Below are positions 8,771 to 50,284 of a stretch of 64,000 bases of DNA, one piece after another. Numbering within the stretch: position 1 is the first letter of the stretch; every line of letters begins with the position of its first letter. The notes beneath the pieces are model-generated. The model worked only from the letters and a program-made list of their open reading frames with translations, made no database searches and was not told the origin of the DNA. A program made the translations under genes and the position numbers. Origin of the DNA: an uncultured Candidatus Micrarchaeota archaeon (lineage in GTDB: Archaea > Micrarchaeota > Micrarchaeia > Burarchaeales > Fermentimicrarchaeaceae); the NCBI GenBank assembly GCA_963760615.1, contig CAVXDX010000012.1, positions 3,338 through 67,337 of the forward strand. Direction: 5' to 3'.

Positions 8771-8842
8771 TGGGCCCGCCCGGGATCGAACCGGGAGTTT
8801 TCACCGTGTAAGGGTGACGTCTTACCATTCGACCACGAGCCC
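8771..8842 (-). tRNA. tRNA-Val (anticodon UAC)
   Basis: Acceptor GGGCTCG/CGGGCCC, anticodon stem TCACC/GGTGA with loop CTTACAC, T-arm GGTTCGATCC. Confidence 0.8.
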
Positions 8843-22130: not shown

Positions 22131-23684
22131 TTGCAGTGCAAATGTTCTCCGCAAGAGGAGGTTGAATTGGAAGGCGGTTATTTCAGGTATGACAAGCTGC
22201 AGCCCAGAGAATACCAGCTCAGGATAGCTGAGAACGTTCTGAAAAAGGGCAATTCCCTAGTCATACTGCCAACCGGGCTGGGAAAAACCGCAATAGCACT
22301 GCTCGTTGCTGATAAATATCTCCAGCAGGGTAAGAGAGTGCTCTTCCTCGCACCAACAAGACCCCTGTGCGAGCAGCACAGGAAGAGCTTTGAGGAGCTT
22401 ATGAAGCTCCCGAGTGAGGACATTCTGCTTATAACTGGCAAATTTGGGGCGGGGGAGAGGGAGGATTTGTGGAATACTGCAAAGGTTATTGTCGCAACCC
22501 CGCAGTGCGTGAAGAATGACTTGAAAAAAGGCAAAATGAAACTGGAATTCGGACTTGTTGTGCTTGACGAGGTGCACAGGGCAGTTGGCAATTATGCGTA
22601 TACTTTCGTTGCAGAGGAGTGCAGGAAAGTTGGGCTTCACCTGCTCGGTCTGACTGCATCACCTGGAAGCTCCAAGGAGAAGATTGAGGAGATGAGCAGC
22701 CTTCTTGGAGTTAAGAATATAGAGATACGGGATGAGGCTGATGAAGATGTGAAGGAGTATGTCCAGCCTCTTGACATCCACTGGGAGACCGTTGATTTTC
22801 CAGCTGAGATGGATGAGGTGAGAAAGCTTCTGGAAGATGCAATGGAGGATAGGCTGGAGGTGATGAGGAAGTTCGGGTGGATAAATGCCAAGAGCTTCCG
22901 CTCCCTGGGGAAGAAGGTGCTCCTGCTGGCCAGGAGCAAAATTGAGAGGACTTCAGGAGGAGTAAAGTATATGGGTCTGTCGCAGTATGCCGCGCTGATG
23001 AATCTCACTCACGCGCACGAGCTGCTTGAGACTGAGGGCGCTTCAACTTTCCTGGAGTTTTTCAAGAGAATGGAAGCCCGCGAGCAGAAGAGCAGGGCGG
23101 TTGTCAGAATATTGAAGGATTACAGGGTTGTGCAGGCTTTGGAGAAGGCTAGGCAGCTGAAGATTGACCACCCGAAGCTGGACAAGCTGCGCCAGCTCAT
23201 AGAGGGGAGGAAGGACAGGATATACATAATTTTCGTGCAATTCAGGGACCAGGTTAAGAAAGTGGTTGAGGAGCTAAACAAGATACCTGGAGTGAAGGCT
23301 GAGAGGTTTGTTGGAAAGCGTGATGGTGTAACACAGGAGGAGCAGAAGGATACTATAGAGAGGTTCAGGAACAGGGAGTTCAACATACTTGTGGCAAGCT
23401 CTATAGGGGAGGAAGGGTTGGATATACCTGCCGTGGACTGCGTCATCTTCTACGAGCCAATACCGAGCGAGATAAGGAACATCCAGAGAAGAGGCAGGGC
23501 CGGGAGGACCAGAGCCGGGGAAGTGATAATACTCATAACAAAGGACACGCGGGATGAGGCGTACTACTGGGTTTCAAGAAGCAGGGAGAGGAAGATGAAG
23601 AGGATAGTAAAGGGAATGCAGAACAGGTTCGGAGGAGAAGTTAAAAAAGTAAAGGGGCAGAGCAGGCTATCTGACTTCGGCTGA
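22131..23684 (+). CDS. Hef/FANCM-type superfamily 2 helicase (helicase module only); likely start TTG 22167 after SD GAGGAGGT
   Basis: Motif I LPTGLGKT, motif II DEVH, motifs V/VI (...QRRGRAGR), and an insertion domain between the RecA lobes. No ERCC4 nuclease domain is present. Confidence 0.7.
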   Translation: MQCKCSPQEEVELEGGYFRYDKLQPREYQLRIAENVLKKGNSLVILPTGLGKTAIALLVADKYLQQGKRVLFLAPTRPLCEQHRKSFEELMKLPSEDILLITGKFGAGEREDLWNTAKVIVATPQCVKNDLKKGKMKLEFGLVVLDEVHRAVGNYAYTFVAEECRKVGLHLLGLTASPGSSKEKIEEMSSLLGVKNIEIRDEADEDVKEYVQPLDIHWETVDFPAEMDEVRKLLEDAMEDRLEVMRKFGWINAKSFRSLGKKVLLLARSKIERTSGGVKYMGLSQYAALMNLTHAHELLETEGASTFLEFFKRMEAREQKSRAVVRILKDYRVVQALEKARQLKIDHPKLDKLRQLIEGRKDRIYIIFVQFRDQVKKVVEELNKIPGVKAERFVGKRDGVTQEEQKDTIERFRNREFNILVASSIGEEGLDIPAVDCVIFYEPIPSEIRNIQRRGRAGRTRAGEVIILITKDTRDEAYYWVSRSRERKMKRIVKGMQNRFGGEVKKVKGQSRLSDFG

Positions 23685-23693
23685 GTTCAGGTA

Positions 23694-23996
23694 CTAAAAA
23701 CTGATTTTCACTCCTAAGAGCATTAGGAGGAGTATAGTTGCCAGTCCCGGAAGACCGAATAATGCCACAGGCACTATGGTTGGCCATATGGGGATAGCTT
23801 GTAGGGATTGGATGTGCAAAGATGTCCCTATTATATTGAGTAGGAAGAGGCATACAACCCCCACTATGGAGTTGAGTATGATTGTTAGGAGCCACTTGAA
23901 TCCCACTCTTGCCAGCTTGAAGAAAAGCACTATCCCAATTACTAAAAAGAATATGAATACCAATGAAGTGCAGATTAACGCAATGTCAAATGCCAT
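23694..23996 (-). CDS. Small membrane protein (about 100 aa, 3 TM)
   Basis: Hydrophobic ORF with no motif recognised. Confidence 0.3.
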   Translation of the reverse strand: MAFDIALICTSLVFIFFLVIGIVLFFKLARVGFKWLLTIILNSIVGVVCLFLLNIIGTSLHIQSLQAIPIWPTIVPVALFGLPGLATILLLMLLGVKISF

Positions 23997-24045
23997 AATA
24001 CCACCTAGGAGTTATCTCAGATGGGGTTTAAAAGTTTGACGCATT

Positions 24046-24453
24046 CTATTCAGTTGTTCTGCCGTCAAACTCCTCCGGGCTTGCAATTGCCTCTGCCTTT
24101 GTCTTCCTCACTACTTTGTCTTGGTGCTCGGGAGGGGAGTAAATGGTGTAGAGCTTGAGCTCCGAAGTTTTGGATGTATTGATCACGTTATGCTTTGCGC
24201 CCGCAGGGACTATTACTCCATCCCCATCCTTGACAGGGTATTCATTTCCGTCAATAACCACCTTTCCCTCTCCTGCTTCAAATCTGAAGAACTGATCCCT
24301 ATCCTTGTGCACCTCCATGCCTATCTCTTCCATGGGCTTGAGGTTCATCAAGACCAGCTGGCTGTTCTTCCCGGTGTACAAAACTCTGCGGAAATCTGAG
24401 TTTTTCCTAGTCTCCTTTTCAAGAGCTGTTGCATACCCTTTCATATTCGTCAC
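24046..24453 (-). CDS. Cupin-domain protein
   Basis: The cupin motifs G(x)5HxH(x)3,4E and a second His motif are present (MEVHKDRDQFFRFEAGEG...VPAGAKHNVIN). Confidence 0.6.
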   Translation of the reverse strand: MTNMKGYATALEKETRKNSDFRRVLYTGKNSQLVLMNLKPMEEIGMEVHKDRDQFFRFEAGEGKVVIDGNEYPVKDGDGVIVPAGAKHNVINTSKTSELKLYTIYSPPEHQDKVVRKTKAEAIASPEEFDGRTTE

Positions 24454-24585
24454 CTCTCAGTTACGATTTCAGTTTCAAGGTATATTAATATTGACTATAT
24501 TCGAGTAAAGCTAGCTTGAATATTTAAAAGAGATACATACGCCAGTTTGGGACAGACTCTGTTTCTTTAGGTTTTATAAAGACAA

Positions 24586-24599
24586 AAAGGCATAATTTA
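24586..24599 (+). promoter_or_regulatory. Conserved promoter-proximal 14-mer aaaggcataattta (copy 1) between TATA (24572-24580) and the ATG at 24603
   Basis: An exact 14/14 copy is also present at 25496-25509 and 28933-28946, each 4-5 nt upstream of a leaderless start. Confidence 0.6.
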
Positions 24600-24602
24600 A
24601 CC

Positions 24603-25475
24603 ATGCCAGAAAACGTCAAATTTACGGAAGAGCGAAACTCGGAAGAAAAGGTACCGAGAAGGGAGCACCTCCAGCCTATCAAGGAGATTATCCACCAATT
24701 ACATAAAAAGAAATTTGTCGAGCCAAGTTCAGTGAAAGCTGTGCTGCTGTATATAGAAATGGATTGGGGGAGCGGTGAGCTGCAGAAATGGGCTGATGAG
24801 GTTGAACGGAAAAAAGAGAGACTAGAAAAAAAGTTTAAGGTAAATGAGAAGCTCACCACTGAGATAAAAAGCATAATTGAGAGAGTGGGCACAGGTGTTC
24901 TAAGCGAGGATGAAATGAAAGAGGCTGAGAGGAGATTCAAAGGAGCGAAATATGCGTGGAGCCGCTATTCCATTATCCCTCTTATTGTCAAGGGTGGGCA
25001 AACAGCAGGCCATATTGAGCTGCTTAGAACTGCCCCGTTATTGGATGAGGTAGCGAGTTACGGGATAAAACTTCACGAGTCCGCCCATTTTATTCATCTT
25101 TTCATAGTTGAGAAGCGCCTTGAGAGCGGGGATATCAAAGACCCGATAATGAAAAGGCTTTATGAGTACATGCACGGGAAATATAGCAACGAGATAATTG
25201 ATGCCGCGGTGCGCGGCTATATCGGCCCGCGATATCAGGAGACCGTGGCGGAGGCTCTCATGTACTGCGTGCTGCACAAGGGCGAAACACCTGACAAGCA
25301 CAGGGATTTCAGGGTGGCTGACGAATTCAGGCTGCTCGGACATGACGTCAAGGAGCTGGGAAACCTTTTCAAAAGCAACCCTGAGACATTCAGAAAGCTC
25401 GTGGAAAACCCCTCATGGTGGGTGGAAGCTGGCAGCGTTGAAAAACTTGTTGAAAAGTTGAAGGAACCGGGCTAG
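24603..25475 (+). CDS. Hypothetical protein with an HExxH motif, candidate zincin-like metallopeptidase; first gene of the island promoter family
   Basis: LHESAHFIH, with a downstream ETVAEALMY as a possible third ligand. Leaderless with TATA at -30. The conserved 14-mer aaaggcataattta ends 4 nt before the ATG. Confidence 0.4.
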   Translation: MPENVKFTEERNSEEKVPRREHLQPIKEIIHQLHKKKFVEPSSVKAVLLYIEMDWGSGELQKWADEVERKKERLEKKFKVNEKLTTEIKSIIERVGTGVLSEDEMKEAERRFKGAKYAWSRYSIIPLIVKGGQTAGHIELLRTAPLLDEVASYGIKLHESAHFIHLFIVEKRLESGDIKDPIMKRLYEYMHGKYSNEIIDAAVRGYIGPRYQETVAEALMYCVLHKGETPDKHRDFRVADEFRLLGHDVKELGNLFKSNPETFRKLVENPSWWVEAGSVEKLVEKLKEPG

Positions 25476-25495
25476 TGACAATCTTAAAAAGGAGA

Positions 25496-25509
25496 AAAGG
25501 CATAATTTA
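25496..25509 (+). promoter_or_regulatory. Conserved promoter-proximal 14-mer aaaggcataattta (copy 2)
   Basis: Identical 14-mer. TATA tcttaaaaa at 25482-25490. ATG at 25514. Confidence 0.6.
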
Positions 25510-25513
25510 GGAT

Positions 25514-26479
25514 ATGCCAGCATACAAGAAAGAGAAGGCGGAGGGCATATCAGAAAGCCACCCTGCTTCGAAAGTTGACGTCTTCCCAGACCACCTAAAC
25601 ACCAAGATTGGGGATTACAAAGTTCGCATAGACAAGGATGGGGTAAAAGCAAGGAAGGAAGTAAAGGACCTGACGGTTCAACTTGCGCGGATGGATTATG
25701 AACAGTGGTATTACCCGTCGTTAGGTCCGAATTTTGTAGATAAGAAAGAAATTAAGGTGCCTTCCATTGATCTTGTCGTATCGTTCAGTTTTGAAGACCT
25801 ATCCAGTATAGCCGAGTTGAAGCCTAATGAGCTTAAGGGATATCCTGAAAGGACCTCCCAAAATTGGATAAATGTGAACGTTTCTGCAAAATTCCTTATT
25901 GACGATAGGGAGATGGATATGAAAGGATTCACCAGGGGAGTTGTCAAGCATTCAATGCCTCGTTGGCTTACTGACGCCAAGGAATCCAAGCTTCGTGATG
26001 CCATTATTCTTGATGATGATTTCCGCGGCAAGCTTGCCGGTGACATCAGGATGCTTGCCAGGAAGGTTGACTGGATGCTGAAATTCGACCCAAATGCCTC
26101 TGTGTCATTCAAAGCGCTAATGGCTGCAAAGAAGGCGGGGATAGAAAACTTCGACAGAGAAGTCGAGAGTCTGACAATACAGGTTTTGGAAATATCAGAG
26201 AAATGCGATGTTTTCAAGAACCCGGACGCCCTGCTTCAACTGGCCGTTAAGGCAAGGGAACAGGAAAATGGCGAAGCCATAGTTCTTAAACTTGGCGTCG
26301 ACCTTTTCATGGCAGCCCAATTCATCCGAGATGAAGCTAATAAGACGACTGACCCCGCTGCCAAGGCTTTCCGGGAAAACCAGGCAAAAAAACTGTATGC
26401 GCTTAGCCAGCTATTCCATGATTACGCTCTAAAGGACTTGAATGAAAAGAGAGACAAGAAGTCCAAGAAGGAGTCATAG
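25514..26479 (+). CDS. Hypothetical protein (321 aa, K/E-rich); carries the same conserved promoter-proximal 14-mer
   Basis: Clean ORF starting ATGCCAG with the 14-mer and TATA upstream. No recognisable domain. Confidence 0.4.
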   Translation: MPAYKKEKAEGISESHPASKVDVFPDHLNTKIGDYKVRIDKDGVKARKEVKDLTVQLARMDYEQWYYPSLGPNFVDKKEIKVPSIDLVVSFSFEDLSSIAELKPNELKGYPERTSQNWINVNVSAKFLIDDREMDMKGFTRGVVKHSMPRWLTDAKESKLRDAIILDDDFRGKLAGDIRMLARKVDWMLKFDPNASVSFKALMAAKKAGIENFDREVESLTIQVLEISEKCDVFKNPDALLQLAVKAREQENGEAIVLKLGVDLFMAAQFIRDEANKTTDPAAKAFRENQAKKLYALSQLFHDYALKDLNEKRDKKSKKES

Positions 26480-26530
26480 ACGTTTTTCTGACATTTCTGA
26501 AATCATCTAGGCTTTCTTCTGGTTGAGGTA

Positions 26531-26548
26531 ATGTAACTATGGTTACAC
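26531..26548. promoter_or_regulatory. 18-bp palindrome atGTAACtatgGTTACac (GTAAC-N4-GTTAC), candidate operator
   Basis: One of three near-identical palindromes in island intergenic regions. About 80 nt upstream of the 26612 start. Confidence 0.5.
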
Positions 26549-26611
26549 AAACTACATGGAAAGGAAGTCAGTTTCTTTATGGTTTATAAGCTTAAAACGA
26601 GCAATTTTAGC

Positions 26612-27913
26612 ATGCCAGAAGCGCACAAGAAAGCAGTCTATACGCAGTCCTTGATAGACAACCCTAAGCTTTCAGAAGACAAGGTAACCGGTGAGTTCAA
26701 GGGATTCCCACTAGAATACAGGAACGGCGTGATATACCTAAGCAAGGAATACCACCACATACATGCAATTATAGAGTGGTGGGATGAGGGAACGAAGGAT
26801 TTTATCAAGAGACCGGTGGTATTCGATTCAGTCAAGGTTACTGCGGAATTCAGGGGGAAGGAATTCGCACATGGATTCTACGGGGAGGATATAACAATTG
26901 ACTGCGGTTACGCCACTGCGGAATTCAAGCTTGACGGGAAGAAGTACAAGGTGGATTACGGCATATTTGAAGGCGACAATTCTAGTTGGTATCTGAACTA
27001 CTACTCGGACTTCGACAATGACAAGAAAAGACTGTATTTCATGCGTCATTTCAACAGCAGAGTCATGGATGATTTCGTCCCATTCAGGGACCATGGGCTT
27101 GTGGATGTCCTCAGGTTTGACAAGCATGTTGCTCCGCTCTTCGAAATTGAGCTGGAAACAAGAAAGAAAAAGCATGAACTGGTTGAAGACTTGAAGCTGG
27201 AGGCGCAACAGATTGGCAGGCAATACGACATAGAAAGAAACCCCCTTCCTCTGCAGCCGATATTCAAGAGGGCCAAGGAAGCAGGGGTGGTTGATAAACT
27301 CATAGGCGGACTGAGGAGGTGGGCCATGGACAGAAGAGAGCACATGTCAGATTGGGGAGAGGAGACGAGGTGGGTTTCGATTGAAGAGATTGCAAGCGGA
27401 AGGAGAAGGGAGAGCTTTGAGGACTTGGCAAGGAGGACTCAGGCAGAGAGGCTTGACAAGATAGCAGATGCGCTTCAGAAGTTCAACCAGAAACCCACTA
27501 AACAGCAGGAGAAGGAATCTGCGGAATGGCTTGCCTTCGACAATGCGTTGAAGAAGGTTGATGGAATGATGGCTGAGGAAAAGGACTGGAGCAGGGATAC
27601 TGGTAAATTTGCCGCTCGTGTCATTGAGGAGATAAAGCCCATATGCGAGCCGAGAAAGTTTGCGGAAACCCTGAAAAGACTCATGGAGTTCAAGAAGGAT
27701 GATGGAGTGGTTGAGCAACTCTCTGCACTTTACAGCCCTATGTATTTCAGGAACTTCATCAGAATGATGGGTGGGGATATCAGCAATGAGGAACTTGAGG
27801 AGCTGTTCGGAAAGGGAAAGGAGCGCCTGGGAGAGTATGTGAGAGGCGTGGCTGATGAGACCAAGGGGAGGGAGCTTCTTCTTTTGAGCGAGGAGATTCT
27901 GAAGAGATGCTGA
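26612..27913 (+). CDS. Hypothetical protein (433 aa); start reassigned to the ATGCCAG at 26612, not the track start at 26579
   Basis: The ATGCCAG start context is shared with the two upstream genes. TATA gtttataag sits at -30 relative to 26612. The GTAAC-N4-GTTAC palindrome sits at -80. Confidence 0.4.
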   Translation: MPEAHKKAVYTQSLIDNPKLSEDKVTGEFKGFPLEYRNGVIYLSKEYHHIHAIIEWWDEGTKDFIKRPVVFDSVKVTAEFRGKEFAHGFYGEDITIDCGYATAEFKLDGKKYKVDYGIFEGDNSSWYLNYYSDFDNDKKRLYFMRHFNSRVMDDFVPFRDHGLVDVLRFDKHVAPLFEIELETRKKKHELVEDLKLEAQQIGRQYDIERNPLPLQPIFKRAKEAGVVDKLIGGLRRWAMDRREHMSDWGEETRWVSIEEIASGRRRESFEDLARRTQAERLDKIADALQKFNQKPTKQQEKESAEWLAFDNALKKVDGMMAEEKDWSRDTGKFAARVIEEIKPICEPRKFAETLKRLMEFKKDDGVVEQLSALYSPMYFRNFIRMMGGDISNEELEELFGKGKERLGEYVRGVADETKGRELLLLSEEILKRC

Positions 27914-28034
27914 ACAGCCAGCACACGGGCTCCTGACAGGAAGTTTGGGAGGGGGCAGCAGACGATTAGCGGAAAGTTACCCCTTGCCAATGTTTTTAAA
28001 CGACAAACCTAGTATCAATACAGAGGCGGGGTAA

Positions 28035-28481
28035 TTGGATGTTCTTTTAGATACAAATGTCTACCTGGCGCATATAAAAGGTGAAATGCAGGGCTCTCAT
28101 GCAAAAATTATACTGGAAAGGGTGGCAGCAGGGGAGCTTGCCCTTTGCTACAACGGCATAATCCGGATGGAAATAGAGAGAAAGTATGGGTATTACCTAG
28201 AACCGTTTTGCGCCATACTCGAAGAGCTGAGAAAATTAGGCAGAGTTGTGGATGTTGAAATCACAAATGAGATGAGTGAAAAGGCAATACAACTCGATAG
28301 GAAGCTGATAAAATACAGAAGAGGAAAGGAAGAAAGATTCGGAAAGATTGATTGCTTGCTGATACTTCTTGCAAAGAAACATGGATGCATGCTTGTGACT
28401 ATTGAGAAAGAATTAATTGAAGCCGCAAGAGAAGAGGGAGTCAAGGCAGTCAGTCCAATGGATCTAGCGATGAGTTTCTAG
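28035..28481 (+). CDS. PIN-domain (VapC-like) nuclease, TTG start
   Basis: LLDTNVYL N-terminal acidic motif and further conserved acidic positions in a 148-aa PIN-sized protein. Confidence 0.6.
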   Translation: MDVLLDTNVYLAHIKGEMQGSHAKIILERVAAGELALCYNGIIRMEIERKYGYYLEPFCAILEELRKLGRVVDVEITNEMSEKAIQLDRKLIKYRRGKEERFGKIDCLLILLAKKHGCMLVTIEKELIEAAREEGVKAVSPMDLAMSF

Positions 28482-28793
28482 GTTCGCTTCCTTTATGAGC
28501 ATGCCCAGAGCTTTACGTTCATTGTTATCCGCCCTCTTTAGAAAATCTTTCCACAACGATTTTCTGGCTGCCCTTCCTAGTTTTGCTGCGCTCTTTGCTC
28601 TATCTCGTTTAACACTCCCGAAAGTCTCCTCAATAATCTTTAATGCCCTTTGTCTTAAAAGTTCAGTCTTTCCTAATTTACTCATATCTTTTACGGCCTC
28701 ACTTCTAGAGGTATAGTATCCTTCTTTAACCAGAATATCTATCTCCTCAACGTCTTTTACTGCATACCGAACTGGTACGACAATGGATTTCAT
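28464..28793 (-). CDS. Ribbon-helix-helix (CopG/VapB-like) DNA-binding protein
   Basis: MKSIVVPVRYAVKDVEEIDILVKEGYYTSRSEAVKDM is the RHH beta-strand plus EEID...SRSEA helix pattern. Convergent with the PIN gene and overlapping it by 18 nt. Confidence 0.5.
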   Translation of the reverse strand: MKSIVVPVRYAVKDVEEIDILVKEGYYTSRSEAVKDMSKLGKTELLRQRALKIIEETFGSVKRDRAKSAAKLGRAARKSLWKDFLKRADNNERKALGMLIKEANLETHR

Positions 28794-28895
28794 TGTATAC
28801 TAAAGCGTATACAGTATTTAAAAGCTTTTGCTGTTCGTATTAAGCCGAATTGTTATTTCATCAAGATTGATAGAATGACCAAGAGGGACGGGGGA

Positions 28896-28913
28896 ATGTA
28901 ACCCGGGTTACAA
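28896..28913. promoter_or_regulatory. 18-bp palindrome atGTAACccggGTTACaa, candidate operator
   Basis: In the divergent intergenic region between the RHH gene (28793) and the 28951 gene. Confidence 0.5.
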
Positions 28914-28932
28914 AGCAGGCTTAAATATCGGG

Positions 28933-28946
28933 AAAGGCATAATTTA
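28933..28946 (+). promoter_or_regulatory. Conserved promoter-proximal 14-mer aaaggcataattta (copy 3)
   Basis: Identical 14-mer. TATA gcttaaatat about 28918-28927. ATG at 28951. Confidence 0.55.
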
Positions 28947-28950
28947 AGGC

Positions 28951-29118
28951 ATGACAGAGGCAAAAAAGCCGGCTGCCAGCATGAGAAAAGATATAGAGCG
29001 GCAGCAGGAGAAGATGAGGGAGCTGTTCGACGAGCTCAAAGAAACCGTGAGCAAACCCAAATGGGATGAGAAGCCGAAGGGGTTCTTCACCGCGCTTGAG
29101 AAAAAGCTCGGCAACTAA
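28951..29118 (+). CDS. Small hypothetical protein (55 aa), not in the supplied ORF track
   Basis: Read directly from the + strand: MTEAKKPAASMRKDIERQQEKMRELFDELKETVSKPKWDEKPKGFFTALEKKLGN. Preceded by the conserved aaaggcataattta 14-mer and TATA. Confidence 0.4.
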   Translation: MTEAKKPAASMRKDIERQQEKMRELFDELKETVSKPKWDEKPKGFFTALEKKLGN

Positions 29119-29716
29119 CCTTAAGGCAACGGATATAATACACTTTGTCACGGCGGGTGAATCAAAATGTAACATTATACTGACTTCAGATGATGACTTT
29201 ATTTCAGAAGGTACAAGATTTCTAAAGATGAAAAAAGAAGATGACAAGCTAAAGTTCTGTAAGCCTATCGAAAAGAATGTGCTAGATGCAGTTGATAATC
29301 TCACTAAAAAAGTTCCTTAAAGTATATAGATTTTTGTGTATAATATAGCATCCGTGAATCACTCGAAACCGTCCGGTTTTGCCAGAAAAAGCAAAAAAAG
29401 CGGTAAAATCCGGCAGAACAGGCAGTATCTCTCCAACTTCTTCAAAAATCCTGAAAAGCCAGCCTAGACCGGAGAAGCCGGCTCAGGCGTAAGCCTCTTC
29501 CGGCTGCGCCAAAGCGCAGCAAGTGTTAGTTTGACCGTTTCACGATGAAGAGAAAAAGCAGGTGAAACGGTAACCGATGCTGCTCAGACGTAAGCATATT
29601 CCGAACTGCCTACCGTTTCGACCGATTCTACAGACGTGTTTTATACCCTAGCAGAAATTTGAAAAAAAGCAGAAAGCTTACGCTATACTCGCAGTCAATG
29701 ACTACTGCCCACCTCC

Positions 29717-29917: not shown

Positions 29918-30237
29918 CTCCAGCCCTTACTCGCTAGAAAGGTTTTTAAATCGCCTCTTACAAAACTAGTAACAGTTATGTAAGAGGTGGTAGCGGGAGA
30001 GGTCATGGTTACACGTGTACCCTCCCCCATCTCTTTCTAGTTTTCAAAACTGCTATAATTTTGGAAGTAAAAGTTTTAATAACATATTGTCCAACAAATT
30101 CAGTCGCTCCGACGAGAAGATGCCGGAATGTGAGTTCTGCTGGTTCAATCGAAGTATTTTATACCCGAATTGAAGATGCTGGTTTTTGTGCGAGTTGAGA
30201 GGCAGATATTTAAACCGAAAAATGCATAACTTATTCC

Positions 30238-30479
30238 GAGTGATGAGCCGGCAGCTTTCCCGCAAGGGAGGAAGTTCCACCCATCGCGAAGGCTGAGGGA
30301 ACCTAAGGTTCGGACGGGAACAGAAACGAGACTGGCCGATTCAGATGAGGATGAAGCAATGAGATGGGTCGAGCCGGGTGAAACGCGCCCGTCGCAAAAG
30401 CAGGATGTGCGATGCAAGGCCTTTGAGCCGCTTAGTCCAATGCTGTCTAAAACAAAAGGTGGGCTATGGCTCGTCACTC
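30238..30479 (+). ncRNA. rnpB: RNase P RNA (compact, about 242 nt)
   Basis: P1 is 12 bp: GAGUGAUGAGCC pairs with GGCUCGUCACUC. P2 is GGCAGC/GCUGUC. P3 is a hairpin with a GCAA loop. CR-I is GGAGGAAGUUCCACCC (E. coli has GGAAAGUCCGGGC). CR-V is ACAAAAGGUGGGCUAUGG (E. coli has ACAGAACCCGGCUUAUCGG) with compensatory CCAC/GUGG in P4. A GGGUGAAAC (CR-II) segment and a GCAAGGCC (CR-III) segment are present. TATA atatttaaa sits about 28 nt upstream. Confidence 0.8.
30433..30479 (+). repeat. 47-bp perfect direct repeat, copy 1 (3' end of rnpB); att-like
   Basis: tagtccaatgctgtctaaaacaaaaggtgggctatggctcgtcactc is identical to 31673-31719. Degenerate similarity extends about 20 nt further 5'. Confidence 0.85.
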
Positions 30480-30989
30480 TTTCTGCTTGCTTGGCTTCTT
30501 TATGACAGGTTTTTCCTCTGGCTTTGTTTTCTGTAAAGTAAGCGCAAGCGACCATCCGATGGTTACTCCGCAGACCCACAAAAACCCGAAGATTATAGGA
30601 CTGATGTCGGAATGGTATATCGGGCACGCATCCAAAATTCCAAATAGGGGTTTGTTGTATGGCCTTCCGGAGGTGCAGTGGAAAATGAATGGTATCAGCG
30701 CCAGTATGGCAATGAAGAAAAGGAAAGTGAGAATCCCGCTGGCAATCAGATCTATTGAATCCAGATGGTATATTCTCACCGCAGCGTAGCCGCCGCTGAT
30801 AAAAATGATAAGGACAGCCAGCAGATACCCGAAGTAAAAGTTGCTTCCAAATGCAAATTGAGAGTAGCCCGGGAGAGAATCGTACATGGGCTCGGTTATT
30901 GCGTATATGAGAAATATCAAAGCCACTGGAATAAGCGATGCTTTCAGCATTTTCTTCCATTCCATGAGACCACCCATCAGATATGCCAT
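30474..30989 (-). CDS. Membrane protein (171 aa, about 4 TM) inside the repeat-bounded segment
   Basis: Hydrophobic ORF. Its stop overlaps the rnpB 3' end convergently. Confidence 0.45.
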   Translation of the reverse strand: MAYLMGGLMEWKKMLKASLIPVALIFLIYAITEPMYDSLPGYSQFAFGSNFYFGYLLAVLIIFISGGYAAVRIYHLDSIDLIASGILTFLFFIAILALIPFIFHCTSGRPYNKPLFGILDACPIYHSDISPIIFGFLWVCGVTIGWSLALTLQKTKPEEKPVIKKPSKQKE

Positions 30990-31041
30990 TCCGAGATTTA
31001 TAAAGTTTCACACCGGGGGCTTTTTTTCCAGCAGAATGCGC

Positions 31042-31362
31042 TTATAACTCCGTATGGATTACCTTGAGGAGCAGACCGTCCTTTATCTTTTCGAACAGCA
31101 CAAGGTCCTTGTCATGAATCTTCTCCTCCTCAACCAGCTTCTCAGGCAGTGTGACCACTTTTGAATGCCCCACCACCCTCACCCTCCTGGCCAACGACTT
31201 CCTCCTGCCGGTCAGGACTTCCCACCTCAGCATTTCGCTTGAGGGAAAGAAGGTCTCGGAGCAGCCCTGGCACTTCCATCCTCTAATCCTGACGCCTTCG
31301 CTTACTTCCGTGTATTTTTTCAACGGTCCTTTGCAGATTGCGCATCTTTCCATAAACATCAC
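31042..31362 (-). CDS. Zinc-ribbon plus AbrB/SpoVT-like swapped-hairpin domain protein, putative antitoxin
   Basis: N-terminal CAICKG...CQGC ribbon. The C-terminal VVGHSKVVTLPEKLVEEEKIHDKDLVLFE resembles AbrB/MazE-fold DNA binders. Confidence 0.45.
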   Translation of the reverse strand: MMFMERCAICKGPLKKYTEVSEGVRIRGWKCQGCSETFFPSSEMLRWEVLTGRRKSLARRVRVVGHSKVVTLPEKLVEEEKIHDKDLVLFEKIKDGLLLKVIHTEL

Positions 31363-31613
31363 CTCACAAGCTTCAGATGAATTAATATAATCTCCTTGTC
31401 AGTTTCGGCATAGACAAGCTCCCAAACTCCATTTTTTGCTTTCCTCTCAACCCTTACCTTCTCCTTGGATTCCTTCTCATGCTCTCCTTTCTCCAGGATT
31501 TCCAGAACAAAATCCAGATTTTTCCTGTATATGTTGTAAAGTTCATTCTTGAAATGCCCTGTCTCAATCAAATCTTTGTTCTTGAATCGCAGCTCTTCAG
31601 GCATATATCTCAA
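31359..31613 (-). CDS. RelE/ParE-like small protein (84 aa), putative toxin
   Basis: The C-terminal GVWELVYAETDKEIILIHLKLVR resembles the RelE/ParE beta-sheet region. Overlaps the downstream AbrB-like gene by 4 nt. Confidence 0.4.
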   Translation of the reverse strand: MRYMPEELRFKNKDLIETGHFKNELYNIYRKNLDFVLEILEKGEHEKESKEKVRVERKAKNGVWELVYAETDKEIILIHLKLVR

Positions 31614-31672
31614 CTGAGTAAAGTATATACTCTTGGATATTTATATATCTTTCTATAATTGAGGCTTTGCTG

Positions 31673-31719
31673 TAGTCCAATGCTGTCTAAAACAAAAGGT
31701 GGGCTATGGCTCGTCACTC
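31673..31719 (+). repeat. 47-bp perfect direct repeat, copy 2 (displaced partial rnpB 3' end); att-like
   Basis: Identical 47-mer with a gapped similar 5' extension (ggctttgctgtagtcc versus ggcctttgagccgcttagtcc). Confidence 0.85.
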
Positions 31720-31736: not shown

Positions 31737-32612
31737 TCAGGCGATTCCGTACTGTTTTTTTATCTCCTCGAAAGTAGGCAGGGCAAACTCCTTTCTTGCT
31801 TTTACTACTTCCTGAAAATCCTCAGGATTGACCCCGAGCTTCTTGGCTATGTCCTTCACATCTAACAGCTTAACCTTTGAAAGCTTTACTACTCCGAACC
31901 AGTGCATCGCCCTCACGTCATCCCAGAGAAGCTCGCCATTGGGGTTTTTCGCCAGCTCTTCTATTATCTCCTTCCTGGCTGCATAAATCTTGTCGTCATC
32001 CCCGAGAATCCTGTTGTTGAAAAAAAGAAAGATTTTCGCAAACGTGACTTCCTCCATGTCTTCAGATTTTTTGCTGCCATCTGAAGGTTTGAAATTTCTT
32101 ATTCTCTCTTTTGTTTCCTCAAGTTCGAAGATACGACCTCTGAGTTTCATGTTTTCATCTCCAAACTCGTGCATCACCAAGCTCGTTTCATGGTTATTGC
32201 TCTCATCCCTCAGTAGGACATGCACATCAACATCGCTCCTTGCCCCTGCGGTTCCTTTTGCCCAGCTCCCCATAAATGAAAGTCCTATAAACTTGTCCCC
32301 GTTAATGAATTTTAGCGCTTTCTCAGCTCTCCCCAGCAGCTCTATGAGTTCTTCATAGCGCTGTTTTTCCAAAGCAGTGCCCTTTCTACCTATAAACTCC
32401 GGGTATTCGGCTGACTTGAGGACTTCCGCCCTTGCGGCCTGCTTCAGCTCATTCTTGAATGACTTCGTGAGAAACTTTTCAGCAGCAGCCCTTTCGTCAT
32501 CTGACAGGATGCTTTTCTTCAGGGCTTCCTTGAAGTCTGAGCCTATCTCATCCCTGAGTTTTTGCTCTATCTGCTTGTCCTTTGAAATTTTCTGCATGTC
32601 TAGATTAGGCAT
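31737..32612 (-). CDS. Polymerase-beta-superfamily nucleotidyltransferase domain protein (291 aa)
   Basis: GSWAKGTAGARSDVDVHVLL is the hG[GS]x9-13Dh[DE]h NTase motif. The protein is much longer than a minimal MNT. The GTAAC-N4-GTTAC palindrome sits at -85. Confidence 0.55.
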   Translation of the reverse strand: MPNLDMQKISKDKQIEQKLRDEIGSDFKEALKKSILSDDERAAAEKFLTKSFKNELKQAARAEVLKSAEYPEFIGRKGTALEKQRYEELIELLGRAEKALKFINGDKFIGLSFMGSWAKGTAGARSDVDVHVLLRDESNNHETSLVMHEFGDENMKLRGRIFELEETKERIRNFKPSDGSKKSEDMEEVTFAKIFLFFNNRILGDDDKIYAARKEIIEELAKNPNGELLWDDVRAMHWFGVVKLSKVKLLDVKDIAKKLGVNPEDFQEVVKARKEFALPTFEEIKKQYGIA

Positions 32613-32691
32613 TTCTTTCTATTTAATCTTGCCTCCCCCCCAACAACCAAATTAACCAGTAAGATTTCCCACCGGGGGCTTTTTTCCAGTT

Positions 32692-32709
32692 ATGTAACCA
32701 TGGTTACAT
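32692..32709. promoter_or_regulatory. Perfect 18-bp palindrome atgtaaccatggttacat, candidate operator
   Basis: Perfectly self-complementary. About 85 nt upstream of the nucleotidyltransferase gene start (32612). Confidence 0.55.
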
Positions 32710-32788
32710 TGCCTTGACACGGATTTATTTTGTTACAGTAACAAAAAATGCCTCTTTTCGTGCTGATTTTGTTATAATAACAAATTAA

Positions 32789-33850: not shown

Positions 33851-33903
33851 AACACGAGCCACTCACCCTTTTAAATTTTCTATTTCACAACTAATACGCC
33901 AAG

Positions 33904-34027
33904 GCCAAGGTAGCTCAGCTTGGTTAGAGCACCAGACTCATAAGCTCAGCTTCATGAGTGATGAGCGCTATGCGCGATGATATGCTGCGTAATCTGGGTG
34001 TCGCGAGTTCAAATCTCGCCCTTGGCA
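33904..34027 (+). tRNA. tRNA-Met (anticodon CAU) with a 49-nt intron (33943-33991) at the canonical 37/38 position
   Basis: Acceptor GCCAAGG/CCTTGGC, D-arm GCTC...GAGC, anticodon stem CCAGA/TCTGG, loop CTCATAA, T-arm GCGAGTTCAAATCTCGC. Intron segment AUGAGU pairs with ACUCAU of the anticodon region (BHB-type helix). No CCA is encoded. Confidence 0.75.
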
Positions 34028-38493: not shown

Positions 38494-41400
38494 TTAGCAA
38501 GCACAGTATAAAGTACTACACGCGGTAACGCATTGGTAGTCGGTTCCCGTGTGGCAGAAGTTATCGCAGTTGCAACAGACCTGAGACCCAGGACAAGTAC
38601 CAGTTGGATGTGCGTTATCACAAGCGCCAGCTGCTGACTGACATGTTCCTCCGCTGCATGTACCTGATTGGCATACTCCAGGGCATAGGCATGCTTGCCC
38701 GTTTGCTAAAGAACCTGCGGTTATGCAGTATGAAGCACCTGTACCTCCTCCCTTGCACATATTGGCGCACTTATAGTTGTTGGTTGCGCCGCATGCTACT
38801 GCATTGCAACTGTTTGAACTGCAGGTACCACAGACTGCACAGGCAGCTGTTGATGAAACTGCAGTGCATGATGGGGTTGATGTGGTGGTAGTGCAGCCTA
38901 CTGTTGGGAAATAGTGGGTTGCGTCGCAGTTTGTGATTGGGTTGGATGAGCAGGTGGCGAGAGTGCCAAAGTAATAGCCGCAGAGACTGGGTGTATTTGC
39001 GTAGTATCCTTGGCATACGCCGGGGTTACCCGAACATGCTCCTGAAGTGCACATTCCAGCGCAGTAGCAGGTTGCTCCTGTTCCGCCTTTGGCTACGCAG
39101 TTTCCTCCACCTGTTCCTAGACCATTGCATACACTGGGACTAGTACAGCCATAGCCGTTTGTTGTACCGCATGATTTTGTACCGCAGGTATCACCAGTGC
39201 CGGTGCAGTCTCCGCATACCGCGCAATAGCCTGAAACACATGATAGCTGAGCGCCTAGTATGCAGGTTGGTTGTGATGCGCTGACTTTATAGCCTGATGC
39301 GCAGAATGCATTTGCGGGTCCGCATGAGGCAGAATTTCCATAGTAATAGCCGCAGAGATTTGGTAATGACTGGTAATAGCGTGAGCATTTATGGGTGGTG
39401 GTATTGCAGACCAGCCCACCTGTGCACATTTCAGGACAGTAACAGTCAGCTCCCTCAGTGCTGGATGGGGGTACGCAGTTTCCTCCACCTGTTCCTAGAC
39501 CATTGCATACACTGGGACTAGTACAGCCATAGCCGTTTGTTGTACCGCATGATTTTGTACCGCAGGTATCACCAGTGCCGGTGCAGTCTCCGCATACCGC
39601 GCAATAGCCTGAAACACATGATAGCTGAGCGCCTAGTATGCAGGTTGGTTGTGATGCGCTGACTTTATAGCCTGATGCGCAGAATGCATTTGCGGGTCCG
39701 CATGAGGCAGAATTTCCATAGTAATAGCCGCAGAGATTTGGTAATGACTGGTAATAGCGTGAGCATTTATGGGTGGTGGTATTGCAGACCAGCCCACCTG
39801 TGCACATTTCAGGACAGTAACAGTCAGCTCCCTCAGTGCTGGATGGGGGTACGCAGTTTCCTCCACCTGTTCCTAGACCATTGCATACACTGGGACTAGT
39901 ACAGCCATAGCCGTTTGTTGTACCGCATGATTTTGTACCGCAGGTATCACCAGTGCCGGTGCAGTCTCCGCATACCGCGCAATAGCCTGAAACACATGAT
40001 AGCTGAGCGCCTAGTATGCAGGTTGGTTGTGATGCGCTGACTTTCTTGCTTGCTGGACAACTTGTGATTGGGTTGGAGGAGCAGGTGGAAGAAGTTCCAT
40101 TGTAATAGGCGCAGAGATTTGGTAATGACTGGTAATAGCGTGAGCATTTATGGGTGGTGGTATTGCAGACCAGCCCACCTGTGCACATTTCAGGACAGTA
40201 ACAGTCAGCTCCTTCGATGCTGGATGGAGCAGCACAGTGGCTTGCTCCGGTTCCCACTCCATCGCAGACATTACCACTTGTTGAGCATCCATATGTAGTT
40301 CCACAAGCAGCAATCCCGCAGGTATCCGTCCCATCACCAACACAGTCTCCGCAAGTTGCACATGAACCAGATGAAGTTTCTGGCTGGCAGAATTTATAGC
40401 CTGATGATAAACAGTCTTGAATTGGGAAGTACTTTCCTGAACTGCAGTAGGTTGTAGTAAGTCCAGAACCGCATCCACCCGTTGTTGTTGACTGATAACC
40501 ACAGAGGTTGGTGGTGTTCCGGTAGAAGTAAGTTTGTGCTGTGCAGATACCACCCACGCATGTCGTTCCACCGGTGCAGACATTGCCGCAGTATCCGCAG
40601 TTGCTGTCGTTTGTATTCAGGTCAGGAACCTCGCATGCATCTGATGAATCATTATTGCAGTTTACAGAGGTGCCAGGGCAGTTAGTATAAATTCCGCCAG
40701 TGCAGTAGAACATATTTCCACAGTCATCTATTGATCCTGTGCAGCATTGAATCTGGTAGTTGATTCTGCCATCGCTGCCGCCTGTTGAGTTTGAGCATAT
40801 ACGGGTGCCTTTTGAGATTTTATCACATGCCGGCCAGAATGTTAGGGTATTGGGAGGACAGCCATTTTGACCTAAGCAGGATGCATTGCATATGCCGTTA
40901 AATGTGCAGGCTGCATTGCAGGCAGCAATGCATTGGCCTCCCTGACATGCAGTTCCCATCGGGCAGACATTGCCGCAGTGTCCGCAGTTGCTGTTGTTTG
41001 TAAGCAGATTCACCTCGCATGCATCTGATGAATTATAATTGCAGTTTGCAAACCCAATTGAACAACCAGTGCAACTGCCACTGCTGCAGTATGATGTGTT
41101 CCCGCAGCTTGTTATCGCCCCGTTGCAGCATGAAACATTGTAGTTGATTGTGCCTGTTGTTCCACCTGACGAGTCTGTACACAGTTGAACATTGGCACCA
41201 ACATTGCCATTGCAGGCTGGGAATATTGAGGAACAGCCGGAACAGGTTGCATTGCATTTGTTGTTAAATGTGCAGTCTGGCATGCATGTGTTGGTGCACG
41301 CAGCGCAGTCACTTGGGCAGTTGACGCAGCTTTCTCCATTCGCAGTATCGCAGTGGGTATCTCCGCACCAGCCAATTGTTGTTGATGTATCCTGATAACA

Positions 41401-49810: not shown

Positions 49811-50284
49811 TTAAATAGCTTTCGTATAGTCGCGCCAGAAGAGCGGAATTAGACCTGCGATGAAAGCTAAGGTGACGATTATTCTAACTTGTTTTTCATC
49901 GCTAATGCCGAAGTATAACATGCCAAATACAGCTGCCAGCACAATTATGAGCATTATAATCAGCTCCTTGAAAGGCGGGTGCAAAATATGATGTAGAGGT
50001 GTCCCTAGGATATCACGTGTCTTTTCTGCCTCTTCTCTAGATATCTTAGATTCTTTGATTTTTTTATCAAGTTCATTCCCTCTGTGGTATAAATATGGGA
50101 AGACAAGTATTGCTCCGATAAGAAAAGCTACCCAAGGATTAACATTAAAAATAACGGATAGGGTAAGTGTTATTGCAACGAAAACGAACCCTCCTACATA
50201 TTGTATTTTTTTAAGCTCTTTCGCAAAACTTTCTATTTTCCTTCTTTCTGCTTGGCTCAAACAACCACCTAGGGCTGCTCCCAC
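49811..50284 (-). CDS. Membrane protein (157 aa)
   Basis: Hydrophobic ORF. Confidence 0.3.
   Translation of the reverse strand: MGAALGGCLSQAERRKIESFAKELKKIQYVGGFVFVAITLTLSVIFNVNPWVAFLIGAILVFPYLYHRGNELDKKIKESKISREEAEKTRDILGTPLHHILHPPFKELIIMLIIVLAAVFGMLYFGISDEKQVRIIVTLAFIAGLIPLFWRDYTKAI

Follow-up and report, generated by a model that had tools for sequence, protein, structure and literature searches.

A type M RNase P RNA gene in a Micrarchaeota-type archaeon and a probable 1.24-kb insertion at its 3' terminus

In tRNA and tmRNA genes, the 3' part serves as a target for integrative elements and genomic islands, and tandem arrays can build up there. A second class of small mobile DNA, represented by integron gene cassettes and by the Xer-dependent "dif modules", consists of recombinase-less units that lie between recombination sites and often contain toxin-antitoxin genes. 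Archaeal RNase P RNAs fall into several types, of which type T is without most of the specificity domain. Type T belongs to the Thermoproteaceae (PMC3579882). The archaeal types have been formally defined, and type M is found mainly in the Methanococcales (PMC5499556).

Here we describe a locus in a 64-kb stretch of DNA, called the window throughout, which very probably contains a type M RNase P RNA gene with a 1.24-kb unit inserted at its 3' terminus. As a new member of a known family the RNA itself is ordinary. What is unusual about the locus is the cassette array at the 3' end of the RNA, for which the mechanism of insertion is one that we infer.

The RNase P RNA gene and its helices

Comparative analysis confirms that the 242-nt segment at window positions 30238-30479 (plus strand; Table 1) is an archaeal RNase P RNA, the predicted gene for the catalytic subunit in a Micrarchaeota-type archaeon. 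A sequence-only reading of the window had predicted an RNase P RNA of about 242 nt and proposed a covariance-model search as a check. Rfam model RF00373 matches the RNA end to end (model positions 1-288) with exactly the predicted ends, at 86.3 bits (E 1.8e-22), a narrow 2.3 bits over the gathering score of 84 bits. This is the single RNase P match in the window, and homologues scoring 86-94 bits were found in three Micrarchaeota genomes and four metagenome contigs. A CR-I/II/III pattern, scanned against a set of species-representative genomes that is without the window's own species, has one match in the complete genome of Ca. Fermentimicrarchaeum limneticum.

Table 1. Features of the RNase P RNA locus (window coordinates)
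Feature	Position	Strand	Basis
288-aa antisense ORF, not a gene	30145..31011	-	no family match; overlaps the RNA
TATA box ATATTTAAA	30206..30214	+	sequence; kept in five homologous contigs
RNase P RNA, predicted type M architecture, 242 nt	30238..30479	+	Rfam RF00373, helix and covariation tests, conservation boundaries
P4 5' strand AG-U-UCCACC, U30275 bulged, inside CR-I; partner 30458-30465	30273..30281	+	8/8 pairs, 13 sequences
P5 5' strand CAUCGC; partner GCGAUG 30409-30414	30282..30287	+	6/6 pairs, 13 sequences
P9 hairpin AACC-UAA-GGUU, sole hairpin between P7 and P10/11	30300..30310	+	RNAalifold; Rfam alignment deletes P8
P10/11 5' strand GACGGG; partner CCCGUC 30388-30393	30313..30318	+	6/6 pairs, 13 sequences
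CR-II ACAGAAACGA	30320..30329	+	invariant across all aligned RNAs
P12, double-K-turn signature GAUGA-G-GAUGA ... UGAG, short distal loop	30332..30377	+	aligned with Methanocaldococcus
CR-III GUGAAACG	30378..30385	+	invariant
P15, 3-bp hairpin GGC-CUUUGA-GCC	30418..30429	+	3/3 pairs, 13 sequences
att-like copy 1, the RNA's last 47 nt (J15/2, P2 3', J2/4, P4 3', P1 3')	30433..30479	+	perfect repeat
Cassette gene 1, 171-aa ORF with hydrophobic stretches (database version 163 aa, 30474..30965)	30474..30989	-	
Three-gene segment unique to the inserted cassette	30480..31672	-	absent at the orthologous site in L002 and L009
Cassette gene 2, 106 aa, with an AbrB/MazE-like domain at the C terminus and four cysteines in the N-terminal part	31042..31362	-	weak Pfam MazE_antitoxin, E 0.005
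Cassette gene 3, 84-aa ORF, 4-nt overlap with gene 2	31359..31613	-	unassigned
att-like copy 2, the same 47-nt RNA terminus displaced to the far end of the insert	31673..31719	+	perfect repeat
291-aa nucleotidyltransferase-domain gene, first past the insert	31737..32612	-	Pfam NTP_transf_2; blastn/blastp to L002
tRNA with an intron (anticodon read by inspection as CAU), the conserved far limit of the variable region	33904..34027	+	Rfam tRNA, 57.6 bits

The boundaries of the gene are marked by conservation as well. Among five metagenome homologues, conservation starts at the TATA box and ends exactly at 30479, with sharp edges on both sides; upstream of the TATA box the flanks of these contigs diverge. 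The centre of ATATTTAAA lies about 27 nt upstream of G30238, the first nucleotide of the RNA, and by its position this element is probably the promoter from which the RNA would be transcribed. RNase P protein-subunit families were sought in the Pfam results for the window, and none was found. A match to SNORA51 at 30464-30578 on the minus strand, with 24 bits against a threshold of 50, was taken as chance.

The RNA is predicted to fold into the universal core, with P1 to P5, the P4 pseudoknot with its bulged U and CR-I to CR-V, and a trimmed specificity domain consisting of P7, P9, P10/11 and P12 with CR-II and CR-III. P1 is a 12-bp helix (GAGUGAUGAGCC / GGCUCGUCACUC) with one G-U pair, P2 is GGCAGC/GCUGUC and P3 is CCC-GCAA-GGG. 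CR-I reads GGAAGUUCCACCC (30270-30282), the P4 strands include CCACC/GGUGG, and further segments are ACAAAAGGUGGGCUAUGG (30452-30469), GGGUGAAAC (30376-30384) and GCAAGGCC (30415-30422). The TATA sequence, P1, P2, P3 with its GCAA loop, CR-I, the CR-V strand, the P4 change and the other segments noted in the sequence-only reading all lie where it had placed them. CR-II and CR-III flank P12 inside P10/11, and the P15 hairpin sits directly between the 3' strand of P5 and J15/2. P7 is a putative helix of at most 3 bp, and P9 is without a GNRA loop.

Support for these helices comes from 13 homologues of three lineages (55-100% identity), in which P1, P2, P4, P5, P10/11 and P15 pair fully. In this test the strands were located by invariant anchors, with the P2 5' strand and the P10/11 offset picked as best fits. 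Double-sided changes occur in P2, P4, P5, P10/11 and P15, P1 having been listed and left unscored. In P4 one pair changes from A-U to G-C and another from U-G to U-A, while P5 appears as CAUCGC/GCGAUG, CACCCC/GGGGUG or CAUCCC/GGGAUG. P10/11 differs in sequence from lineage to lineage and yet retains all six pairs in every RNA, and in P15 the GGC/GCC seen here appears with its strands exchanged, as GCC/GGC, in the Aenigmarchaeota RNA and in two of the Methanocaldococcus RNAs. Members of the compact clade share 90% identity or more, so most of the covariation comes from the distant lineages; within that clade, four of the 11 pairs of P12 show compensatory changes.

A MAFFT alignment of 10 sequences, in which the program misplaces gaps in P5 and P15, supplied the formal count: 88.4% of the cells are paired, compared to 36-46% when the partner strands are slid, with 17 pairs changed on both sides (2-10 when slid) and a covariation score of 0.308 (at most 0.138 when slid). 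Of 500 shuffles, none attained the paired percentage or the covariation score of the real alignment, and eight attained its 17 double-changed pairs. Chance is excluded by this excess of pairing and covariation together with the sharp conservation edges at both ends of the RNA. Minimum-free-energy and RNAalifold folds recover P1, P9, P10/11 and P12, but they cannot show P4 and they replace P2-P5 with a non-canonical hairpin, and so were not used for the core. The Rfam placement of the P5 and P7 3' strands, which is marked as non-canonical, was dropped in favour of the covarying CAUCGC/GCGAUG, and an alternative P7 (CUG/CAG) was dropped because it fails in contigs L015 and L004.

With a score so close to the Rfam threshold and an antisense ORF as long as 288 aa across the same region, one could argue that the RF00373 match is a marginal false positive or a pseudogene and that the ORF is the true gene. 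This argument is hardly credible in view of six helices with compensatory changes, including a P4 pseudoknot that Rfam does not score, the invariance of the CR-I, II, III and V motifs, and the presence of the same RNA in a complete Micrarchaeota genome that has a single match to the pattern. The ORF itself has no family match and overlaps, in another frame, the conserved 171-aa ORF. It is closed in all four homologous contigs, where the antisense stretch stays open for at most 92 aa, which bears out the earlier suspicion that it is spurious. In the annotation, the 288-aa ORF call should give way to the RNase P RNA gene, which is genuine.

Architecture compared with other RNase P RNAs

The architecture of the RNA, as predicted from sequence and alignment, is supported as type M: P8 is lacking and P15 is a bare 3-bp hairpin. 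The Rfam alignments of this RNA and of that of M. indicus both omit P8 and give a short P15 region, and the 37-38 nt between CR-I and CR-II contain P5, P7, one hairpin and P10/11. A reduced, type-M-like specificity domain had been suggested earlier. The loss of P8 and the bare P15 agree with that suggestion, but the reduction is not confined to the specificity domain, since the hallmarks of type M fall in both domains, with P8 lost from the S domain and P16/17 and P6 lost from the C domain.

The RNA shares with the type M RNAs of Methanocaldococcus and Methanococcus (Rfam RF00373) the order of helices, the lack of P8 and a 3-bp P15 without P16, P17 or P6. With Methanocaldococcus it also shares the unusual CR-I variant GGAAGUUCC, the CR-II, CR-III and CR-V motifs, and the GAUGA-N-GAUGA...UGAG signature in P12. 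Here GAUGAGGAUGA...UGAG aligns with GAUGACGAUGA...UGAG of Methanocaldococcus, and the double-K-turn motif, as defined in PMC5499556, is a putative binding site for two L7Ae molecules. Identity to the Methanocaldococcus RNAs is just 60-63%, and the RNA is 16-21 nt shorter than their 258-263 nt because P3, P7, P9, P10/11 and distal P12 are trimmed. P3 has 3 bp and a GCAA loop, P7 has no more than 3 bp, and the 4-bp P9 ends in a UAA triloop in place of a GNRA loop. P10/11 has 6 bp, as against a complementary stretch of about 9 bp (by eye) in Methanocaldococcus, and a 5-nt loop is all that is left of distal P12. In the other direction, 7 extra nucleotides lie between P10/11 and P5. The RNA had been called small for an archaeal RNase P RNA, and next to Methanocaldococcus it is. 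The small size is nonetheless no peculiarity of this genome, as a version of 241-242 nt is the norm across the Micrarchaeota lineage.

Type A RNAs (e.g. Pyrococcus) have the universal core, the CR motifs and the double-K-turn signature of P12 in common with this RNA, whereas the P8, L15 internal loop, P16-17 with a K-turn and P6 pseudoknot of type A are absent here (definitions from PMC5499556). Type T and the present RNA are both strongly reduced, but the latter retains P9-P12 with CR-II and CR-III. By analogy with type M of Methanocaldococcus and Methanococcus, the RNA would cleave the 5' leaders of pre-tRNAs only together with protein subunits. The host is a DPANN lineage, unlike the Methanococcales in which type M is mainly found (PMC5499556), and the type M design, which is predicted to be protein-dependent here as well, extends beyond the groups in which it was described. 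An Aenigmarchaeota RNA likewise lacks P8 and has a bare P15. Together with the Micrarchaeota version of about 241 nt, this layout bears on whether type M had a single origin or arose repeatedly.

The repeated RNA terminus and the inserted unit

The last 47 nt of the RNA are repeated perfectly (47/47) and in direct orientation further downstream (Table 1), where chance would be expected to produce no such repeat. Copy 1 ends at the last nucleotide of the RNA. The duplication of the RNA's 3' end 1.24 kb downstream had been overlooked in the sequence-only reading.

The segment 30480-31719 is an insertion, because the complete Ca. Fermentimicrarchaeum genome (L002) has an uninterrupted site, in which the end of the RNA runs straight into the orthologue of the 291-aa gene. 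Across this junction L002 and the window are 69% identical over 323 nt, and the sequence after copy 2 is orthologous to that after the intact gene in L002. In a second relative, L009, only about 76 nt separate the RNase P RNA from the tRNA. The same intron-containing tRNA, which in this lineage normally bounds the site on its far side, lies downstream of RNase P in L002, L009, L016 and L017. Just before the tRNA of the window, at about 33860-33880, a possible decayed repeat copy (...CACGAGCCACUCAC...) was too degenerate to call.

Gene 1, whose TGA stop falls within the final 6 nt of the RNase P RNA gene, has no family match but has homologues (P0001, P0002), with family members in L018, L020 and L028. 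Gene 2 has 15 homologues, several with PF04014, and from its sequence is a putative antitoxin or regulator; gene 3 could possibly be its toxin partner. In L021-L023, L028 and L029 the gene immediately upstream of the AbrB-like one encodes 81 aa and is a putative homologue of the window's 84-aa ORF. On the antisense strand the repeat contains TTTTGTTTT, which could also terminate the transcription of each cassette. The arrangement raises the question of whether convergent cassette transcription affects formation of the 3' end of RNase P RNA.

One 1,253-nt contig (L019) equals the insert, with the two halves of the 47-nt repeat at its ends, and was considered as an excised circle. A k-mer assembly break at the 47-nt repeat explains these ends, so the contig is not evidence of a circle.

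Cassette arrays and their possible insertion

Similar units are present in all eight of the other related contigs examined, so that units of 1.0-2.0 kb with a common layout occur in 9/9 contigs when the window is included. The units end in a copy of the RNA terminus, and most contain a gene for a membrane or secreted protein and a toxin-antitoxin-like pair; the distal copy is lacking in the region before the tRNA of the window and at the third position in L018. The number of tandem units at the site ranges from zero to at least three across related genomes, and in contigs that reach the neighbouring tRNA gene the arrays lie upstream of it. Repeat copies not cut by a contig end all finish at the same nucleotide, in CACUC (18 copies aligned).

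The extent of identity is specific to the type of unit and travels with it. The ParE unit has about 35-37 nt of identity in both L014 and L017, and the unit of the window, with 47 nt, recurs in L028 (99% identical protein) at array position 3 or later, accompanied by its flank and then by a decayed repeat copy. The PsbP-like and 171-aa gene families each adjoin a repeat copy, at position 1 or 2, and the PsbP-like gene has a different array position in L014 and L018 than in L015.

Insertion probably proceeded as follows. The RNase P RNA gene would have offered its 3' terminus as the attachment site, and the 1.24-kb three-gene unit, which brought along the RNA's final 47 nt, would have recombined with the end of the gene. 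The exchange would have restored a complete RNA gene, with a second 47-nt copy remaining on the far side of the insert. No recombinase or integrase was detected in any cassette protein scanned (Pfam, PHROGs, PADLOC) or in the 59 ORFs of the window (Pfam). Viral contigs, phage records and plasmid records, searched for a free or viral form, likewise contained no match to the att segment, the insert or the unit genes. With no recognizable recombinase in the units, insertion would depend on a recombinase supplied in trans or on single-crossover homologous recombination of a circular intermediate. A bolder reading, somewhat less likely than not, is that the RNase P RNA 3' terminus is a dedicated attachment site of recombinase-less 1.0-2.0 kb mini-cassettes, mobilized in trans and forming integron-like shuffling arrays in Micrarchaeota. 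A 2026 survey reported no provirus in the 1,356 Micrarchaeota genomes screened (PMC13573593).

The same lack of a recombinase in every unit would also be expected if the repeats are scars of once-larger, integrase-bearing proviruses or plasmids that decayed by deletion, leaving addictive toxin-antitoxin modules with a few cargo genes; the units would then not be mobile as small cassettes now, and perhaps never were. Decayed or missing distal repeat copies fit such a history, toxin-antitoxin-like genes are the type of module expected to outlast deletion, and an IS240-family transposase near the arrays in L015 and L018 indicates rearrangement. Independent decay does not, however, predict intact units with their own flank at differing array positions, as seen with the unit shared by the window and L028 and with the PsbP-like gene. 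The equally small size and common layout in all nine contigs, none of which has integrase remnants, also speak against this history, and we consider it rather unlikely.

Homologous rather than site-specific recombination is the other route, in which a circle with 15-47 nt of the RNase P 3' end, looped out, for example, from another array between two repeat copies, enters by a single crossover with no dedicated recombinase. Tandem direct repeats permit such loop-out, and the RNA 3' end, being identical across the strains compared, would be a portable patch of homology. No dyad symmetry is obvious when the repeat block is inspected, which together with the missing recombinase is in keeping with this route. 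Some blocks, however, measure only about 15-17 nt (L016 copy 2, L028 attB) and are marginal substrates for homologous exchange, and junctions that all fall at one identical nucleotide are more typical of site-specific exchange. This route appears unlikely.

An essential ribozyme gene that is neither a tRNA nor a tmRNA gene appears to act as an insertion hot spot, and tiny units without a recombinase offer a tractable case for how cassettes move in DPANN archaea. The literature searched yielded no precedent for an RNase P RNA gene as an integration site, and as its coverage was incomplete this is an absence of evidence only. There are parallels with elements at tRNA and tmRNA genes. Here too the unit carries the 3' part of the RNA gene, its integration would restore that gene, and a direct repeat remains; relatives with an unoccupied site are known (L002 and L009); and tandem units would arise by successive insertions, with the older distal repeats decaying. 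The target differs, being the RNase P RNA gene, as do the size of just 1.0-2.0 kb and the failure to find an integrase.

Comparison with integron cassettes and dif modules is one of resemblance only. No adjacent IntI-type integrase was found, and the units appear to have their own promoters, which is another difference. Their boundaries are direct repeats of a structural RNA terminus, whereas integrons and dif modules have imperfect inverted-repeat attC or dif-like sites. What these systems share with the Micrarchaeota units is the arrangement in arrays of one orientation at one locus, shuffled between genomes.

The RNase P RNA

A compact RNase P RNA behind a TATA box had been proposed by the sequence-only reading, and inspection found all of the sequence elements it listed in place in the window. 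The Rfam model RF00373 matches a 242-nt stretch (model positions 1-288, E 1.8e-22) at 86.3 bits, narrowly above the gathering score of 84, and Rfam finds no other RNase P match in the 64-kb window. The centre of the TATA box lies about 27 nt upstream of G30238, the usual archaeal position. Five metagenome contigs with homologues were retrieved by a 31-mer from the 3' part of the RNA; in four of them the RNA is complete (88.8-91 bits), and the fifth has a truncated copy. Their alignment is conserved from the TATA box to a sharp stop after ...GUCACUC at 30479, and all contigs differ 3' of this point. An overlapping 288-aa ORF, dismissed in the earlier reading as spurious, is indeed not a gene, because it has no family match, runs antisense to the whole RNA, shares part of its length, in a different frame, with a 171-aa ORF for which homologues exist, and does not stay open in any of the four homologous contigs, whose longest open antisense stretch over the RNA is 92 aa.

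The suggestion of a type-M-like specificity domain also holds. P8 is absent (deleted in the Rfam alignment, as it is in M. indicus), P15 is a bare 3-bp hairpin directly between P5 and J15/2, with P16, P17 and P6 absent, and P12 keeps the GAUGA-N-GAUGA...UGAG signature predictive of a double K-turn. According to PMC5499556, RNAs of both types A and M have a double K-turn of this signature, and type M occurs mainly in Methanococcales. In contrast to Methanocaldococcus, the window RNA has P3 trimmed to 3 bp with a GCAA loop, P7 to a candidate helix of at most 3 bp and P9 to 4 bp with a UAA loop, and P10/11 and distal P12 are trimmed as well. Judged from its sequence, the RNA belongs to RF00373 and has type M architecture, every testable structural feature agreeing with this assignment. 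RNAs of about 241 nt and 90-96% identity occur in the complete genome of Ca. Fermentimicrarchaeum limneticum Sv326 (CP058998.1), in the Micrarchaeota MAG Sv368 and in a Lac Pavin Micrarchaeota MAG; no paper dealing with Micrarchaeota RNase P emerged from a literature search.

Applied to eight compact homologues, RNAalifold supported P1, P9, P10/11 and P12, with four P12 pairs changed on both sides. Since the compact RNAs are at least 90% identical to one another, they were compared with type M RNAs of Methanocaldococcus (258-263 nt, 160-169 bits) and a 288-nt RNA from Aenigmarchaeota, found by scanning genomes for a CR-I/CR-II/CR-III pattern. With strands placed by invariant anchors, two of them by best fit (P2 5' strand, P10/11 offset), and P1 judged by inspection of the listed strands, P1, P2, P4, P5, P10/11 and P15 pair completely in 13 of 13 sequences despite lineage differences. 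Thus P4 is CCACC/GGUGG in the compact RNAs and CCGCC/GGCGG in other lineages (bulged U retained), P5 is CAUCGC/GCGAUG against CACCCC/GGGGUG or CAUCCC/GGGAUG, P15 is GGC/GCC against GCC/GGC, P10/11 is GACGGG/CCCGUC against AGAUGC/GCAUCU and others, and P2 is GGCAGC/GCUGUC against GGUGAC/GUCACC. The formal count used the raw MAFFT alignment, in which P5, P10/11 and P15 are misaligned in the distant rows; it gave 88.4% of cells paired (36-46% with slid partners), 17 pairs with both sides changed (2-10) and a covariation score of 0.308 (at most 0.138). The paired percentage or covariation score was reached in none of 500 shuffles, and the 17 double-changed pairs in 8 of 500. Even with misaligned rows, the structure is distinct from slid and shuffled controls.

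The Aenigmarchaeota RNA (L005, 4023-4310) has one hairpin before P10/11, a 3-bp P15 (GCC-UAAA-GGC) and an insertion of about 35 nt 3' of the P2 3' strand, and its layout appears type-M-like. The CR-I variant GGAAGUUCC is common to Methanocaldococcus and several DPANN lineages.

Features of the window
Feature	Position	Strand	Remarks
tRNA-Gly(UCC), tRNA-Gly(GCC) and tRNA-Phe in a tight cluster, with tRNA-Val and tRNA-Cys	6565-6791 and 8770-8842 (-); 58220-58291 (-)		ordinary
Segment resembling accessory DNA	22131-29320		the 8-kb stretch upstream of RNase P gene
288-aa ORF	30145..31011	-	antisense across whole RNA
TATA box	30206-30214		ATATTTAAA
RNase P RNA	30238-30479	+	
RNA terminus, 47 nt	30433-30479		
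Insertion	30480-31719		
171-aa ORF		-	hydrophobic stretches; TGA stop inside last 6 nt of RNA gene
106-aa protein		-	AbrB/MazE-like domain
84-aa ORF		-	overlaps 106-aa gene
(C/A)CACCGGGGGCUUUUUU motif sites	31001-31026, 32660-32720		
Second 47-nt copy	31673-31719		
tRNA with intron	33904-34027	+	Rfam 57.6 bits; missed by ARAGORN
1,383-aa ORF	38494-42645	-	tandem repeats 39091-40286
389-aa protein	50269-51438	-	tRNA-intron endonuclease catalytic domain

Repeat-bounded units next to the RNase P gene

The last 47 nt of the RNA recur as a perfect repeat (expected by chance, 0), and three minus-strand genes lie between the copies. In the complete Ca. F. limneticum genome (L002) the RNase P terminus directly joins the orthologue of the NTase gene that lies 3' of the window's second copy (69% identity over 323 nt across the junction), and in another relative, L009, an intron-containing tRNA lies about 76 nt downstream of the RNA. 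Given the repeat and these uninterrupted sites, 30480-31719 is an insertion bounded by a 47-nt duplication.

The five metagenome contigs (L014-L018) each have one or two extra copies of the RNA terminus at a spacing of 1.0-1.7 kb. A related contig from another sample (L020) is a 1.6-kb unit with the repeat at each end, and an NCBI contig (L028) has three copies in succession. Eight contigs besides the window, drawn from no fewer than seven different samples or assemblies, show this pattern, the context coming wholly from metagenome assemblies, where a 47-nt repeat can confuse short-read assemblers. All copies not cut by a contig end stop at one identical nucleotide. Upstream, the length of identity ranges from about 15 to 47 nt, each type of unit having its own: about 35-37 nt for the ParE-type unit in both L014 and L017, and 47 nt for the window unit. 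The right-end flank of the window unit is also present in L028, where a decayed copy follows it. Several arrays (L017, L018, L028) have a decayed distal-most copy or lack it.

The units encode ParE/RelE-like toxins with partners, NTase and HEPN-like pairs, PsbP-like or other membrane proteins, and small Zn-finger or wHTH proteins. Their genes are antisense to the RNA with one exception, a plus-strand ORF of 94-96 aa in L016 and in the window region before the tRNA. Sv368 and L017 share, downstream of the RNA, an NTase/HEPN-like pair with 93.6% DNA identity; with the RNA matches, this places the window in Micrarchaeota or a close relative. Unit families differ in position between genomes: a PsbP-like gene adjoins the repeat, at position 1 in both L014 and L018 and in L015 at position 2; members of the 171-aa family occupy position 1 in the window and position 2 in L018; and the window's whole unit occurs in L028 at position 3 or later, with a 99% identical protein.

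Between cassette genes there is a motif (C/A)CACCGGGGGCUUUUUU, often followed by a perfect palindrome GTAACCATGGTTAC (window, L004, L015, L016, L018, L020), which may be an operator with a terminator or promoter module common to different cassettes. A second motif, TATATTAACCTTGCCTCTGC, precedes many cassette genes on the minus strand (L002, L004, L014-L018; e.g. L017 1660-1690) and resembles a BRE/TATA-like promoter lying about 25 nt ahead of start codons, so that cassettes seem to have their own promoters.

The AbrB-like insert protein has a 66%-identical homologue in another archaeal lineage (L024 8001-9208, also L025-L027), which adjoins genes for an SRP RNA and a tRNA. In contigs L021-L023 a trio encoding 81, 103 and 211 aa is flanked by an SMC gene and a ParE pair, and no RNase P repeat is near it. 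From these settings, the gene set is not everywhere associated with the RNase P site.

The rest of the window

Most of the remainder is chromosomal DNA with ordinary archaeal housekeeping genes (glutamine synthetase, CysRS, SAH hydrolase, RNase HII, tRNA-splicing endonuclease and others). The 8 kb before the RNase P gene likewise resemble accessory DNA, with an SF2 helicase with PbeA/Cas3-like matches in PADLOC, PIN and RHH toxin-antitoxin-type genes, and ORFs of 290, 321 and 444 aa unmatched in Pfam, PHROGs and PADLOC. No repeat of the 5' part of the RNA was found. The intron-containing tRNA, with anticodon CAU by inspection (Met or Ile2), is conserved as the distal neighbour of the RNase P gene in L002, L009, L016 and L017; within its intron of about 50 nt, UGAUGAGCGC...GCGCGAUGAU resembles a K-turn or a box C/D-like element. 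The 389-aa protein is much longer than the usual archaeal subunit; an unusually long multi-unit splicing endonuclease has been described in ARMAN/Micrarchaeota, and such an enzyme here would agree with the assigned lineage. The 1,383-aa ORF, probably a surface protein, has a 378-nt unit present three times in tandem, with 100% identity between two of the copies over 300 nt, besides more diverged repeats.

Possible routes of insertion

The RNA gene is intact, the insert is bounded by a duplicated gene 3' end, relatives have empty sites, and units with unit-specific repeat blocks stand in tandem. By analogy with tRNA- and tmRNA-targeting elements, each unit would have entered as a circle with its own copy of the RNA terminus, which recombined with the end of the RNA gene. 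Neither the units nor the 59 window ORFs scanned with Pfam include a recognisable recombinase; one supplied in trans is possible, as are single-crossover homologous recombination and decay of once-larger elements. That the units are active cassettes mobilised in trans is a tentative proposal, with the balance somewhat against it. An IS240/IS6-family DDE transposase (L015 11779-12585, plus strand, Pfam E 2.6e-17, with a homologous ORF in L018) lies just outside the repeat-bounded units.

A 2026 survey of 1,356 Micrarchaeota genomes found no provirus (PMC13573593), and in a literature search no report of integration at an RNase P RNA gene was found. Compared with integron cassettes, the window insertion shows only a loose likeness; it resembles islands at tRNA and tmRNA genes, but has no recognisable integrase of its own.
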